The notes: generated from the sequence alone by a model not told the origin. A stretch of 64,000 nt of DNA from Candidatus Nezhaarchaeota archaeon WYZ-LMO8 (GCA_004347965.1 QNVF01000001.1:43724-107723); one strand, 5' to 3'; shown: positions 948 to 56,528, counted from the stretch's first letter. Translations and numbers: made by a program.

Positions 948-3340
948 GCTTTAAGATTATAAAGAGCGAGAAGGCAGAACAGAAATACAAGGAATGGAAA
1001 GTTTTAGGTAAGCCAATACCCTGTGTGAATAGCTACCTTAAAGTTACTGGTAAAGCAGCATTTACTGATGATATAATCCGGCCAAACATGCTTTACGGCA
1101 AAATCCTTCGTAGCCCGTTCGCACATGCAAAGATAGTGAAAATAGATGCAAGCGAGGCTGAAGCCCTACCAGGTGTATCTAGCGTGATAACTTATAAAGA
1201 TGTGGAGACAATGGGGGTTTCTCAAAAACCACCAGCCTACATTCTAACTGACAGAGTATTTTATGTTGGTGATGTTGTAGCAGCAGTAGCAGCAGAGGAT
1301 GAAGCTATAGCTGAAGAGGCTTTAGACCTTATTAAAGTAGAATATGAGCCCCTTCCATTTTGGCTTACCCCCGAGGAGGCATCATCCGCTCAACCAATGC
1401 ACCCCGAAGTCACTAAAGACAATATCGTTGTTGGTATGTGGCCTCCTTACTACAGGAGTGTAGGCGATATAAAGGAGGGATTTAAGGGGTCTGATATAAT
1501 AGTTGATGTGGAGTTTAGGAAGCCTAATATAAAGCATATGTTTTTGGAGAATTTTACGGCTGTAGCTGAGTGGAGAGGCGATGAACTACATGTTTGGTCC
1601 CATCCGCAAGTCGGTGCTGTGTCTTTTGCAATGATGCTTGCGTCAATTTTCAATGTACCGACAAATAAAGTCCATGTTTACCAATGCTTCATAGGTGGTG
1701 GCTTTGGAGGCAAGATGGGGGACGCTCCATTAAGGGTAGCGGCTCTGGCTGCAATGTTAGCCAAGAAATCTGGCAGACCTGTAAAAATTAGAACTAATAT
1801 TCGTGAACATTTTGTTGAAGGTGCTGTACTGGATCCAGGGATATCTACTTTCAAGTATAAAATAGGGGCCGATAAATTGGGTAATCTTAAGGCCATTGAT
1901 GCTACAGTATGGGCTGGTCAGGGCGAAAGGTCAATTAACCTTGGGATTGTATACTGCGGCGATACTATTTTCAACACTTATCGTATACCTAACAGATCTT
2001 TCAAGGCTTATCCATACTACACTAATACACCTATGTCGCAAGCTCTTCGCGCTTATGGCTCTCAGGCAGGTGTACCGCCTTTAGAAGAAGCTGTAAACGA
2101 AATTGCGGAAAAATTAGGTATGGATCCTGTAGACTTCATAATTAAGAATGGATTAAGGGATGGCGATATAGTTACCCAATACCTTCATAATGATTTTCAG
2201 CTTGCAGGGGGCAGCCTTCCTGAACTGGTGCAGAAAGCCGCGGAGATATTTAATTGGAAAGAGAAATGGAAAGGATGGAGTGTACCTACAGAAATTTCTG
2301 GTTCTAAGAGAAGGGGTATTGGGCTTGCTGTGGCAACGCACACGGCATGGGGGGTTCCTCAACCAGATAGGGTAAAGGATACGGTGATTATTAAAGTAAA
2401 CGTGAATGATGGCACGGTTGAGTGGGTGACTGATGGCAGAGATATTGGATCAGGATTCGATACGGTTGTAAGCCAAGTTATTGCGGAAGTATTAGGAATC
2501 GACATTAAAGACATTATACACGCACCACCACAATCAGTTGGTCAACCAATTGGAGGTTGGACATTTGCAAGCAAGGCCCTTCAATCAACAGTTTTCGCAG
2601 CATATAATGCGGCTAATAACTTAAAGCGAAATATAATTACGGCAGCAGCTTCTATCCTAAACGTTGATCCCAATAGGCTAGTATTAGATTTAAAGGGTAC
2701 TCGCATATATGTTGCAGGCGATCCAACACGCTATGTTAAGCTTTCAAAAATTGGAGAGATATATGGTGGCATATTGATAGGAATAGGTTCATGTCCCTCT
2801 CACTATGAGGGGCCGGAATCCTATATGGACCCAGTGACTGGCAGAAGACTTGGCATGAAAGGTATGTTCTGCTCATTTGCTGAGGTCGAAGTGGATATTG
2901 AAACCGGAAAAATAGATGTTATTAAGTTAATGGTCGCAACTCAGCCTGGCATGATATTAAATCCATTAATGGTTTATGGCCAACTTATTGGTTCAGCGGT
3001 GCATGGTATGGGTTGTATGTTGTGGGAAGGAATAATATATGACGAGAAGACGGGTACGCCATTAAATGCAAGCTTTATTGAGTATCCTATCCCAACAGCC
3101 CTTGATGTTACTGAAGATCAGTTTGTTTGCGTCACAATAGTTGACCCAGATGATGCAAAACTTACACCTTATAGAGCCAAAGGTATTGCGGAAGGAATAT
3201 TTGCCGCAATGTGGCACTCAATCCACATGGCTGTTTATAATGCAATTGGTAGAAAAATAAGGGAATTTCCGCTACGACCTGAGAAGATATTGAGGGCTTT
3301 AGGAAAGGCTCCGTTCCCCCAGACGAAGGGGGTTGTGTGA
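944..3340 (+). CDS. Molybdenum-hydroxylase large (molybdopterin-binding) subunit, aldehyde oxidase / xanthine dehydrogenase family
   Basis: 798 aa with the GGGFGGK motif and Ald_Xan_dh_C-like architecture. Start overlaps the small-subunit stop (ATGA). No VAYRCSFR CODH form-I active-site loop, so the substrate is unknown. Confidence 0.9.
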   Translation: MSFKIIKSEKAEQKYKEWKVLGKPIPCVNSYLKVTGKAAFTDDIIRPNMLYGKILRSPFAHAKIVKIDASEAEALPGVSSVITYKDVETMGVSQKPPAYILTDRVFYVGDVVAAVAAEDEAIAEEALDLIKVEYEPLPFWLTPEEASSAQPMHPEVTKDNIVVGMWPPYYRSVGDIKEGFKGSDIIVDVEFRKPNIKHMFLENFTAVAEWRGDELHVWSHPQVGAVSFAMMLASIFNVPTNKVHVYQCFIGGGFGGKMGDAPLRVAALAAMLAKKSGRPVKIRTNIREHFVEGAVLDPGISTFKYKIGADKLGNLKAIDATVWAGQGERSINLGIVYCGDTIFNTYRIPNRSFKAYPYYTNTPMSQALRAYGSQAGVPPLEEAVNEIAEKLGMDPVDFIIKNGLRDGDIVTQYLHNDFQLAGGSLPELVQKAAEIFNWKEKWKGWSVPTEISGSKRRGIGLAVATHTAWGVPQPDRVKDTVIIKVNVNDGTVEWVTDGRDIGSGFDTVVSQVIAEVLGIDIKDIIHAPPQSVGQPIGGWTFASKALQSTVFAAYNAANNLKRNIITAAASILNVDPNRLVLDLKGTRIYVAGDPTRYVKLSKIGEIYGGILIGIGSCPSHYEGPESYMDPVTGRRLGMKGMFCSFAEVEVDIETGKIDVIKLMVATQPGMILNPLMVYGQLIGSAVHGMGCMLWEGIIYDEKTGTPLNASFIEYPIPTALDVTEDQFVCVTIVDPDDAKLTPYRAKGIAEGIFAAMWHSIHMAVYNAIGRKIREFPLRPEKILRALGKAPFPQTKGVV

Positions 3341-27162: not shown

Positions 27163-27419
27163 ACTAAAAATTATTGTCCTGTAGTTCACAACTCAAATCG
27201 AATGAGGTGCGTCTTTGGGGTTGTTCTATCTAACTAATAGTACCTAAAATAAAAAACGCTTGAATATGCAATACCATTATTCATTTAATAACTTAGTGGA
27301 GAATCCTCGTTTTGTCATCTAGCCTATACTCGAAAGTGTCAAAGTGATGTCATGATGAAGTCACGTATGTCGATCTAGACTTAAAATAGGAGGTATAAGA
27401 AGCTTGAACTCGAAGAGAC

Positions 27420-27509
27420 TGGAGCCCCGGGCGGGATTTGAACCCGCGACCCCTGCCTATTTGTCCAGAATACCAAGGCAGTGCTCTAACCAGACTGAGC
27501 TACCGGGGC
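27420..27509 (-). tRNA. tRNA-Thr(GGU) with a 12-nt anticodon-loop intron; CCA encoded
   Basis: GCCCCGG-UA-GCUC-AGUCUGGUUA-GAGC-A-CUGCC-UUGGUA-[UUCUGGACAAAU]-A-GGCAG-GGGUC-GCGGG-UUCAAAU-CCCGC-CCGGGGC-U-CCA. Confidence 0.9.
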
Positions 27510-31987: not shown

Positions 31988-32091
31988 TGGCGCCGGGAGC
32001 GGGATTCGAACCCGCGCGGCCCAGAGGGCCACAGGCTTAGTGGGGTATACATCCTCTCCAGGCCTGCCCCCTACCACTAGGGTATCCCGGC
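31988..32091 (-). tRNA. tRNA-Ser(GGA) with a long variable arm and an ~18-nt intron in the anticodon-loop region; CCA encoded
   Basis: GCCGGGA-UA-CCCU-AGUGGUA-GGGG-G-CAGGC-CUGGAGA-[~18 nt]-GCCUG-U-GGCCCUCUGGGCC-GC-GCGGG-UUCGAAU-CCCGC-UCCCGGC-G-CCA. The exact splice junction (37/38 to 39/40) is ambiguous by eye. Confidence 0.8.
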
Positions 32092-32123: not shown

Positions 32124-33129
32124 TTACCCTTTCCCCACAAACTTAGAGCTCTTCCAATGTCTCGGGTAGGTCCCTGGCTTCATGATGACTCTAACAGGTT
32201 TTGCTACTATGCCTTGTGATGCCTCGACCATGTCATGTGCCCTCATTAATGCTCTAGCTATAGCAACGAGCTCACCCTTTAACGTCATTATCGCAACAAG
32301 CCCGCCTTTCATAACGTCATCTGTAAGGTGAAGCACACCTGGTGCTGCCAAAGGCGCTCCATGACATATAGAGTCTACAGCTGAATCTCTTATGTATATC
32401 TTAGGCAAGTTCCTTACAGCATACTCTACCGGCAATATAACTTTCCTTAAGAGTTTCTCATCTCCATACTCCCTCAATGCAATTACAGCTTCATGGAGCT
32501 CATGCATCGTAACCAAGTTCTCATCCTCAGTGAAGGGTCCAGTATGTATTCTTCGAAGCTCAGCCATATGAGCTCCAACTCCCAAGACCTCACCTATATC
32601 GTGACACAACTTCCGAATATAGGTCCCAGCTTCGCAGTGAATGACCATCAACACAAGCCTACCAATAATTTCTTGGACCTCTATGGAAAAAATTCTCCTA
32701 ACCCTTAATCTCCTCTCAACTGAGGCCTTAAGTGGGGGTTTCTGATATATGTCTCCCACAAATTCTCGACAAACCTCCCTTATCTTGTCCTCTGGGACAG
32801 CTTCGTGGAGTGCCATTACGCAGACGTAAGTCTTATCAGAGTGAATTATGTGCTGGAGAACATTCCGTGCCCTACCCAAAGCTATGGGTAAGACCCCTGT
32901 AACTTTAGGGTCTCCCCGCCCTTCAATTGAGCTCTAGGGTGCCACCATGACCAGCTTTTTCAACACCAAGAAGCTTTTTAACCCACGACGTTACCTCATG
33001 GCTTGTGGGGCCGGGAGGCTTGTCCAAGTTTATCACACCTAAGTCTATGTGCTGTTCTATGGGTCTCTGATCTGGAGGGCATCCGTAACTATAATCTGTC
33101 GTGTCTTCAGCCTTTATTAGTATGCCCAA
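32124..33129 (-). CDS. cbf5: tRNA/rRNA pseudouridine synthase Cbf5 (H/ACA RNP catalytic subunit), interrupted by a 22-nt BHB-type mRNA intron (32912-32933)
   Basis: N-terminal part ...KAGHGGTLE-stop and, in another frame, DPKVTGVLPIALGRARN...YVCVMALH...PUA domain. Removing 22 nt restores GHGGTLDPKVTG, including the catalytic Asp of the TruB motif. The intron folds as AGA bulge / CCCU:GGGG 4-bp helix / AGA bulge with an inner GCUC:GGGC stem. Confidence 0.85.
32912..32933 (-). other. Bulge-helix-bulge pre-mRNA intron within cbf5
   Basis: mRNA sense: CCCU-AG|A-GCUC-AAUUGAA-GGGC-GGGG-AG|A-CCCUAAAG. Cleavage 2 nt into each 3-nt bulge gives the in-frame junction CUAG|ACCCU (codon GAC, Asp). Confidence 0.7.
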
Positions 33130-37933: not shown

Positions 37934-38434
37934 TTGTCTTCGCGCCAAGTGATATGTTCTGGAAAGTGTATTCTCGGCTTGACTAAGTGTTTTAAAGACT
38001 TAATGTCTAAGCTAGCTTTAAGTAAAGAGGCAAAGATATCGTTCTTCGGCACACCATCCGTATGTTTACCTTTTGTAGAGCTATTGGCCTACGCTATAAG
38101 AGATTTAACTAATAATATGCTGTACATCCCTAACACATCCATCGATATGGCCGTCAAGCTTAGGTACATTGAAGGTTACGGTTTCCAAATAGGTGAAAGA
38201 GCTGACCCACGAAATTCTGATGTAGCAGTACTACTAGGAGGACTAGCAATGCCTAAATCAAAGATTACAGCCGAGGACGCTATGAGAGCTGCGACAGCAA
38301 TACTGAAGAAAGAGGGCACTATAATAGGGGTAGACTTCATGGGAATCTTTGATCAGAACGAATGGACCAACAAAATACCATTCAGCTACGTTCTAGATTG
38401 CTATTGCGAGTCAAAGGTCGAATCGTTGAAATAA
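37934..38434 (+). CDS. Hypothetical protein
   Basis: 166-aa ORF with no recognised motif. The N-terminal start is uncertain. Confidence 0.4.
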   Translation: MSSRQVICSGKCILGLTKCFKDLMSKLALSKEAKISFFGTPSVCLPFVELLAYAIRDLTNNMLYIPNTSIDMAVKLRYIEGYGFQIGERADPRNSDVAVLLGGLAMPKSKITAEDAMRAATAILKKEGTIIGVDFMGIFDQNEWTNKIPFSYVLDCYCESKVESLK

Positions 38435-55298: not shown

Positions 55299-56528
55299 AT
55301 GGTGGAGGTAAGTCTATCTAAGTGCCCTAAGAAGTACTTCGTGGGTACTCATCGAGCTCTTGAACCGGAAGATACCCTGAGGCTCATAGAGCCGAAGATC
55401 AAGACTATAGGTGTAACTCGAATCTCCGACATAACTGGATTGGATAGAGTAGGAATTCCGATATACTCGTGTGTAAGGCCGAGAGCGGCTGAAGGAGCTG
55501 TCTCTGTGTATTCAGGTAAGGGTATCACGGATACGTTAGCGAAGATCTCTGCGATTATGGAGGCAATTGAAAGGTACTCAGCTGAAGTGAGCCCTCAGGA
55601 CGAAAGTGTGATGGTAAAGGGATCGTACAGAGAACTGTCATCGAAATACTCTGTTTTAGACCCTACAACCCTAATACTCCCAAACTTATCGTCATACGAT
55701 AGATCCTCGATACTGAGGTGGATTAGGGGGCATGACCTAGTTCAAAGAGAAGATGTTTTAGTGCCAGTTAGCGCAGTCTTTCATCCTTATAGCCCTAAAG
55801 ATGATCTACACTTATTTAGAACCAGCACAAACGGTCTTGCATCGGGCAATACTATTGAAGAGGCAGTGCTTCACGGATTGATGGAGGTAATAGAGAGAGA
55901 TGCGTGGAGCATAGCTGAGCTGTCTAGAAATGGTGGCAAGATAATTGAGACCCCGATGAAGTACAAGCTGGTTCGAGAGTTAATGGAGAAGTTTGAGAAA
56001 GCATCAATCGAAGTATACCTACGAGATATAACGTCAGATATAGGGATACCGACCATTGCTGCTGTCTCAGATGATACTCTATTAAGGGATCCAGCCCTCC
56101 TAACAATAGGGTTCGGCACCCACTTAGACCCAGAGATAGCAGCTATAAGAGCACTACTTGAAGTTGCTCAAAGCAGGCTTGTTCAAATTCAAGGAGCAAG
56201 AGAGGATACTCATAGAGCTAGCCTAATGAGAATGATGGGTTACGATAGAATAAAGCGTATCAATAAACATTGGTTCTCCAAGTCTGATGAGATCGTGAAG
56301 TTGAGTGAATTACCCTACTTAGCTAAGGACGACATACTCGATGAAATATTGTTCGTTATAGATGTCTTGAGGAGAAGGGGCTTTGATAGGGTTGTAGTGG
56401 TTAATTTAACAAGACCTGAGGTTTCAATTCCGACGGTTAAGGTTGTGGTTCCAGGACTTGAAGTCTATGCTATAGATCAAGATAGGGTAGGTCCGAGGGG
56501 TAGAGCATGCTTGAGAAGCAGAAGATAG
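55299..56528 (+). CDS. ycaO: YcaO-domain protein (ATP-dependent peptide backbone-modifying enzyme; TfuA-associated type)
   Basis: YcaO ATP-binding region pattern and ~400 aa length. Immediately followed by tfuA with a 22-nt overlap. Confidence 0.8.
   Translation: MVEVSLSKCPKKYFVGTHRALEPEDTLRLIEPKIKTIGVTRISDITGLDRVGIPIYSCVRPRAAEGAVSVYSGKGITDTLAKISAIMEAIERYSAEVSPQDESVMVKGSYRELSSKYSVLDPTTLILPNLSSYDRSSILRWIRGHDLVQREDVLVPVSAVFHPYSPKDDLHLFRTSTNGLASGNTIEEAVLHGLMEVIERDAWSIAELSRNGGKIIETPMKYKLVRELMEKFEKASIEVYLRDITSDIGIPTIAAVSDDTLLRDPALLTIGFGTHLDPEIAAIRALLEVAQSRLVQIQGAREDTHRASLMRMMGYDRIKRINKHWFSKSDEIVKLSELPYLAKDDILDEILFVIDVLRRRGFDRVVVVNLTRPEVSIPTVKVVVPGLEVYAIDQDRVGPRGRACLRSRR

Follow-up and report, generated by a model that had tools for sequence, protein, structure and literature searches.

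Results

Organisation of the cbf5 locus

The window, meaning the whole 64,000-nt stretch of DNA from Candidatus Nezhaarchaeota archaeon WYZ-LMO8 that was analysed, contains a gene cluster that is conserved among archaea, in the order secY, an EMC3/TMCO1-like gene, rpl34e, cmk, a gene for a KOW-domain ribosomal protein and cbf5, which forms the end of the cluster. The cbf5 gene is on the minus strand and its frame is broken between GHGGTL and DPKVTG. The upstream part, exon 1 (33129-32934), starts at TTG 33129-33127, the first canonical start, and encodes 65 amino acids, covering the DKCLD domain and the start of TruB_N, plus the G of an Asp codon. Its frame reaches KAGHGGTL at the end of exon 1 (...LGVEKAGHGGTL in the ORF starting at TTG 33129) and then runs through ELN into a TGA stop at 32925-32923. 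The downstream part, exon 2 (32911-32124), begins with the AC of the Asp codon, reads (G)DPKVTG and encodes the remaining protein, with the rest of TruB_N, TruB_C_2 and PUA, down to the TAA at 32126-32124.

When the 22 nt at 32912-32933 (minus strand, mRNA sense AGCUCAAUUGAAGGGCGGGGAG) were removed, a single ORF of 984 nt was obtained, encoding 327 amino acids with GHGGTLDPKVTG across the repaired motif. The junction, CUAG|ACCCU, is in phase 1 of the codon for the catalytic Asp and recreates GAC. As AGA is present at both borders, there are four deletion registers with an identical product; CUAG|ACCCU was chosen among them because of the cleavage rule for bulge-helix-bulge (BHB) motifs. The joined protein has the full Cbf5 domain architecture (DKCLD, TruB_N, TruB_C_2 and PUA) and aligned with the Pyrococcus Cbf5 structures 2aus and 3lwo without gaps over GHGGTLDPKV[TS]G, with an E value of ~1e-112. 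Asp66 of the query was aligned to position 82 of 2aus_C, which we take to be the catalytic Asp82 of P. abyssi Cbf5.

An initial annotation of this DNA had proposed that the Cbf5 frame breaks at the pseudouridine-synthase motif, that the downstream frame reads DPKVTG, and that excision of the same 22 nt rebuilds the GAC codon at CUAG|ACCCU, all of which agrees with the 327-aa ORF, the gapless structure alignment and the exon-2 frame described above. Its upstream reading, GHGGTLE-stop, had the break in the right place but the stop in the wrong one, as the frame actually reads GHGGTLELN-stop. It had also stated that unspliced mRNA can give only a truncated product, and by reading frame this would be a 68-aa N-terminal fragment.

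Two further genes in the window were observed in passing: a YcaO cyclodehydratase gene at 55299-56525 (plus strand) and a DUF2124 gene at 37934-38431 (plus strand). A DUF2124 gene also adjoins cbf5 in some relatives (L119-L121).

Predicted fold of the insert and its flanks

In a 56-nt fold, the minimum free energy (MFE) and centroid structures were both CCCU(AGA)GCUC-loop-GGGCGGGG followed by an unpaired AGA, reproducing the CCCU:GGGG helix, the two 3-nt AGA bulges and the inner GCUC:GGGC stem that had been described initially. The 5' strand of the central helix H, CCCU (32936-32939), is in exon 1, within the Thr-Leu codons ACC CUA, and pairs with GGGG in the insert (32914-32917) through three C:G pairs and one U:G pair (C32939-U32936 with G32914-G32917). 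Between these strands lie the 5' bulge AGA (32933-32935), the 5' strand of the inner helix h', GCUC (32929-32932), a 7-nt loop, AAUUGAA (32922-32928), which holds most of the exon-1-frame stop UGA at 32925-32923, and the 3' strand of h', GGGC (32918-32921); the inner helix therefore has 4 bp, G32932-C32929 with C32918-G32921. The 3' bulge AGA (32911-32913) is unpaired in the fold. In known cbf5 introns, the cuts fall between the second and third residues of each bulge (PMC2738675), and this rule predicts cuts at G32934/A32933 and G32912/A32911, which are, as had been claimed, the borders needed for the in-frame junction.

RNAalifold, applied to an alignment of 15 sequences, found both helices independently and added a short outer helix, in which the GGN of the Gly codon is paired with the third base of the Asp codon and the CC of the Pro codon. 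In the window this possible outer helix consists of 2 bp, G32943:C32908 and G32942:C32909 (5' strand GG at 32942-32943, 3' strand CC at 32908-32909), and between these pairs and H lie a C.C mismatch and A32940, which is unpaired. In most relatives the helix is one pair longer, at 3 bp, and changes from G:C to A:U occur. The earlier statement that the outer helix is lacking can therefore be kept only in the sense that it is short and offset by the mismatch and A32940, since a short outer helix is predicted. The order of bulges and helices is the canonical geometry of archaeal splice sites, with each 3-nt bulge located 3' of its central-helix strand, a match that was checked by reasoning from the tRNA 37/38 case. 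The motif had been called an hBH form; however, HBh' is the name for a motif in which H-B-h' is complete and the outer helix weak (PMC5829648), and ours is best described as relaxed and HBh'-like.

The fold by itself is at chance level, because the number of relaxed motifs in the window equals that in shuffled sequences: 1,536 were counted on both strands, compared with 1,395-1,607 in the shuffles, when a motif was defined as a 4-bp H, two 3-nt bulges and a 4-bp h', with G.U allowed. Enrichment of the motif in the window was therefore dropped as evidence. Thermodynamic significance was dropped as well, as the energy of the 56-nt fold was ordinary (z = +0.53) and the MFE structure in a 102-nt context was a different one, not the BHB motif. 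For any one frame break, the chance that the motif lies in precisely the required register is ~4e-4, calculated as (6/16)^8, so that the weight of the fold lies solely in its coincidence with the frame break, and the decisive support is comparative. A window-wide screen for frame-joining BHB inserts recovered the cbf5 insert; most of the remaining hits amounted to trivial joins between neighbouring genes or to small ORFs in alternative frames.

Inserts at the same site in other genomes

The identical 22 nt are present in two independent MAG assemblies from NCBI, which match the window at 99.9-99.98% identity, and this rules out an assembly artefact. When the site was extracted from loci in genomes, metagenomes and assemblies, Nezhaarchaeales-like, Sulfolobales and Bathyarchaeia members proved to carry inserts of 11-32 nt in 16 distinct variants, all located at one and the same nucleotide, directly behind the G of the Asp codon. 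The window's clade accounts for 12 of them (21-23 nt), two Sulfolobales MAGs carry inserts of 31-32 nt, two Bathyarchaeia-labelled MAGs carry a 23-nt insert and a third carries one of 11 nt. A metagenome scan with a Cbf5 alignment gave 77 of 80 loci without an insert and two more that were unscorable, with only L035 yielding a variant, although the search pattern HGGTLDP[KM] spans the junction and is thus biased toward intron-less genes.

The ends AGCCC/AGCUC ... GGGCGGGGAN are common to the window's clade and the Sulfolobales MAGs; in the latter (L021 and L022) they read AGCCC...GGGCGGGGAU, which is near-identical to the ends in the window. The Nezhaarchaeales clade and L021 and L022 likewise have GCCC:GGGC as inner helix and GGGCGGGGA as 3' end in common. 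As the exon does not dictate the sequence of this inner helix, yet the sequence is shared, the likeness goes beyond what pairing with the exon would need and argues for a common origin of the inserts.

In the 15-sequence alignment, the proposed structure was paired in 99.2% of the 120 helix cells, compared with 43-61% when the partners were slid by 1-3 columns. Compensatory changes on both sides were found in 4 of the 8 pairs, across both helices; the inner helix was 100% paired in the 15 sequences, with compensatory changes in three of its four pairs. In the central helix, the Bathyarchaeia-labelled loci L025 and L026 have CUCU in the exon with GGAG in the intron, compared with CCCU and GGGG, and the exon side of this exchange is a synonymous change of the Thr codon.

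Further observations were made on individual columns and loci. Columns 7 and 48 of alignment A2 (32941 and 32910 in the window), which are the third bases of the Gly GGN and Asp GAY codons, tend to covary as an outer-helix pair, with seven G:C, three A:U and one G:U combinations and four mismatches, including the C.C of the window. If this covariation is real, synonymous sites in both exons would be constrained by the splice motif. In L023 (~3175-3200; Ca. Bathyarchaeia MAG JBHIEI010000039.1), the same cbf5 site has an 11-nt insert, AGAGGGGGGAG, which keeps CCCU:GGGG and both AGA bulges without an inner helix and is below the published minimum of 16 nt; it may represent either a minimal substrate of the bulge-helix-loop type or an intron in decay. 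L026 (Ca. Bathyarchaeia SMAG_U6295, a 1.05-Mb contig) has a 23-nt cbf5 intron with the compensated CUCU:GGAG central helix. The isolate name (SMAG) suggests a soil origin, and the cbf5 intron may therefore not be limited to hyperthermophiles.

All 12 variants of the window's clade (L001-L005, L035, L115, L117, L118 and L122 among the loci) have an exon-1-frame stop in the intron loop, which varies in kind (UGA, UAA or UAG) and in codon; that of the window is at 32923-32925. The stop is also present in the 21-nt variants, where read-through would otherwise insert seven residues at the active site. No stop occurs within the intron in the Sulfolobales variants or in the 23-nt ones of Bathyarchaeia. 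A stop kept in every intron of the window's clade may reflect selection against translation of unspliced mRNA.

Annotation of cbf5 in public databases

The public call of this gene (L034 3001-3804, P0001, MEM0216134.1) is a 267-aa product, MEGRGDPKVTG..., with an ATT start inside the insert (~32927 in the window, minus strand). On near-identical contigs, exon 1 is called separately as a 68-aa DKCLD ORF, with no join annotated, and other pipelines give Cbf5 products of 230-255 aa. In a collection of 5.8 billion proteins, all those 75-98% identical to the spliced product were truncated exon-2 calls of 230-267 aa, and full-length Cbf5 calls appeared only at ~62% identity or below. All database Cbf5 entries of the window's clade are thus without the N-terminal 65 residues.

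Phylogenetic position of the host

As the NCBI labels of the close relatives are inconsistent, the host was placed by SecY. The SecY of the window is 100% identical to a protein of a Ca. Nezhaarchaeales archaeon, 93% and 72-75% identical to those of Ca. Nezhaarchaeota, and at most 49% identical to any elsewhere, which places the host in Nezhaarchaeales, outside the published Desulfurococcales and Sulfolobales range of the cbf5 intron. By Cbf5, the nearest GTDB species representatives (77-84% identity) included two Nezhaarchaeales MAGs, and the identity to Sulfolobales MAGs was 56-57%. The labels within the tight clade L001-L005 were Ca. Bathyarchaeota, Nitrososphaerota, Thermoprotei, Ca. Methanomethylicota and Ca. 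Nezhaarchaeales, and P0001 and P0142, two proteins encoded in one near-identical genome region, have different phylum labels.

In a rough neighbour-joining (NJ) tree of Cbf5, the intron-bearing genes were not monophyletic and had intron-less ones between them. The Bathyarchaeial intron-bearing Cbf5 grouped with intron-less Bathyarchaeial Cbf5, not with Sulfolobales. The insert was absent from one Verstraetearchaeota-labelled Cbf5 and from the Bathyarchaeota chromosome L006.

Intron-bearing tRNA genes in the window

Of the five tRNA genes in the window, two contain introns. One of these, of class II, is at 31991-32091 (minus strand), 33 nt downstream of the cbf5 stop; its anticodon loop is interrupted by 18 nt and its variable arm has 13 nt. 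It scored 52 bits in Rfam and was missed by ARAGORN at default settings; ARAGORN -i gave Thr(GGU) with the intron at position 35, whereas the long variable arm and the canonical 37/38 reading give Ser(GGA), again with an AG|A 5' bulge. The other is a tRNA-Thr(GGU) gene at 27420-27509 (minus strand; Rfam 27423-27509), with a 12-nt intron and an encoded CCA, which default ARAGORN miscalled as tRNA-Leu(CAA) at 27389-27475.

Discussion

The 22 nt that interrupt cbf5 in this genome are, with a probability that we put at about 0.9, homologous to the cbf5 pre-mRNA intron already known from archaea, located at the codon of the catalytic Asp. This reading is supported by the restoration of the frame, the gapless alignment of the joined protein, the use of one site by 16 variants in three lineages and the compensatory changes in the helices. 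The phenomenon itself is documented; what is new here is the host lineage, the Bathyarchaeia-labelled carriers and the systematic mis-annotation of the gene.

To our knowledge, very few protein-coding introns are known in Archaea. The cbf5 pre-mRNA intron of Desulfurococcales and Sulfolobales was reportedly the subject of work by Watanabe in 2002 and Yoshinari in 2006. Yokobori et al. (2009) found it in almost all Desulfurococcales and Sulfolobales examined, with sizes of 16-44 bp, a BHB that is unconventional in most species and a position that disrupts the catalytic codon, and splicing was confirmed by cDNA or by in vitro cleavage with the splicing endonuclease (EndA) for several species (PMC2738675). 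It had been suggested initially that such introns are established for only a few Crenarchaeota, which understates this range, and that the one in the window is special for being very short, which does not hold, since 22 nt is within 16-44 and is the size in S. solfataricus, S. acidocaldarius, S. metallicus and Stygiolobus (PMC2738675). The relaxed motif and the position on the catalytic residue had also been pointed out; both are real, but they are traits of the whole family and do not make this intron distinctive (PMC2738675).

The insert in the window is therefore like the Desulfurococcales and Sulfolobales introns in gene, Asp codon, length, relaxed BHB and predicted cuts, and differs in its host, a Nezhaarchaeales MAG, and in that splicing is here predicted from sequence. 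Compared with the BHB introns of archaeal tRNAs (hBHBh' and HBh'/hBH), the motif geometry is the same and the endonuclease and ligase are presumably the same too; however, the cbf5 intron is in the coding region of an mRNA, has no tRNA body to aid recognition, and has an outer helix of only 2-3 bp, offset by an unpaired A. Haloferax volcanii HVO_1309 likewise has a BHB intron in its mRNA that is a substrate of the splicing endonuclease; that intron, however, belongs to the 5' UTR and interrupts no codon, its motif is canonical, and the host is a euryarchaeon whose enzyme is of the alpha2 type (PMC7714728).

In the proposed pathway, cbf5 would be transcribed with the insert, and the exon CCCU would pair with the intron GGGG as the central helix of a relaxed BHB, with GCUC:GGGC as its inner helix and an outer helix of at most two G:C pairs. 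EndA would then cut after G32934 and after G32912, between the second and third nucleotides of each AGA bulge. The RNA ligase of archaea is RtcB, and a ligase of this type would join the exons, giving the GAC of the catalytic Asp and the 327-aa Cbf5. Any mRNA left unspliced would be translated only into the 68-aa N-terminal fragment ending at UGA 32925-32923. Cleavage and ligation, the enzymes that would carry them out and a possible regulatory role are all inferred from the sequence, and our analysis adds nothing new on the mechanism of removal. The EndA of TACK archaea is normally of the broad-specificity (alpha-beta)2 type. As this type occurs widely across the group (PMC5829648), a fitting endonuclease in the host is plausible; Pfam scans of 20 ORFs of the window detected no EndA and no RtcB. 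The host probably uses BHB splicing, since introns are present in two of the five tRNA genes of the window.

Splicing has to be weighed against other explanations of the broken frame. The insert does break the frame and add a stop, and MAG assemblies do hold errors, so that a frameshifting mutation or an assembly error that makes cbf5 a pseudogene could be envisaged. This is extremely improbable given that two independent assemblies have the identical 22 nt, and that every close relative has an insert at the same site with conserved ends and compensatory changes. Both exons are also under purifying selection, with 77-84% protein identity compared with ~75% DNA identity, and Cbf5 is a core archaeal gene. 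Equally hard to sustain is translational recoding, in which ribosomes would bypass or frameshift over the 22 nt with no RNA splicing. The sequence CCCUA occurs before (32939-32935) and after the insert (32910-32906), superficially like take-off and landing sites; however, a hop between the CUA codons would delete Asp-Pro instead of restoring it, and the downstream CCCUA is not kept in relatives, which have ACCCG, ACCCC or AUCCG. The inserts of 11-32 nt, in frame and out of frame, share the BHB and not a recoding signal, and the homologous inserts of Sulfolobus and Aeropyrum are spliced at the RNA level (PMC2738675).

Another possibility, to which we give slightly more room and which is still very improbable, is that cbf5 is truly split, with the 68-aa N-terminal peptide and a C-terminal protein made separately and then assembling. 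Gene callers do give two ORFs, and the 267-aa product is what NCBI annotates. The exon-2 frame, however, is closed just upstream of the insert by UAG 32936-32934, and the next canonical start, TTG 32879, is downstream of the catalytic Asp; as there is no canonical start between this UAG and the Asp, the C-terminal fragment would lack the catalytic residue. The NCBI model can include it only by starting at an ATT inside the insert (MEGRGDPKV...), and the 21-nt in-frame variants have no start codon after their stop. Removal of the 22 nt as a pre-mRNA intron therefore remains the preferred explanation.

The origin of the intron is a separate question, as the host range describes a distribution and is not part of the definition of the mechanism. 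Yokobori et al. (2009) placed the origin in an ancestor shared by Desulfurococcales and Sulfolobales, in a study that predates the Nezhaarchaeales and Bathyarchaeia lineages (PMC2738675), and reviews of 2020 and 2023 still confine the cbf5 intron to a small crenarchaeal group. We found no report of a cbf5 intron outside Desulfurococcales and Sulfolobales, including Nezhaarchaeota, Verstraetearchaeota and Bathyarchaeota, in a literature coverage that was incomplete.

One tentative reading, to which we give rather less than an even chance, is that the intron is much older and wider than inferred, and was present in an early Thermoproteota/TACK ancestor, kept on the catalytic codon and lost repeatedly in individual lineages. 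It would account for the identical nucleotide and the homologous helices in Nezhaarchaeales, in Bathyarchaeia-labelled MAGs (including the one of putative soil origin) and in Sulfolobales. Alternatively, Nezhaarchaeales could have gained a BHB intron independently by convergent insertion at a hot spot, or could have received it with a laterally transferred cbf5, instead of inheriting it from the ancestor shared with Sulfolobales and Desulfurococcales; we consider this unlikely. The lack of monophyly of the intron-bearing genes in the NJ tree would fit such events, as would the Verstraetearchaeota-labelled Cbf5 and the Bathyarchaeota chromosome L006 that have no insert. However, independent gain would have to produce the same nucleotide and phase, and the same GCCC:GGGC inner helix in the Nezhaarchaeales clade and the Sulfolobales MAGs, and transfer is difficult to reconcile with a Bathyarchaeial intron-bearing Cbf5 that sits with its intron-less Bathyarchaeial counterparts, not with Sulfolobales. 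The NJ tree fits an ancient origin with losses at least as well as transfer, though it is too crude to decide between them.

For this clade, the intron is missed by automated pipelines, with the result that the catalytic N-terminal part of an essential enzyme is absent from databases. The wider distribution reopens the questions of when the cbf5 intron arose and why it has been kept on the catalytic codon. The older origin, if true, would imply selection for coupling the production of Cbf5 to the activity of the splicing endonuclease. The in-frame stop found in each intron of the window's clade fits selection against the translation of unspliced mRNA.
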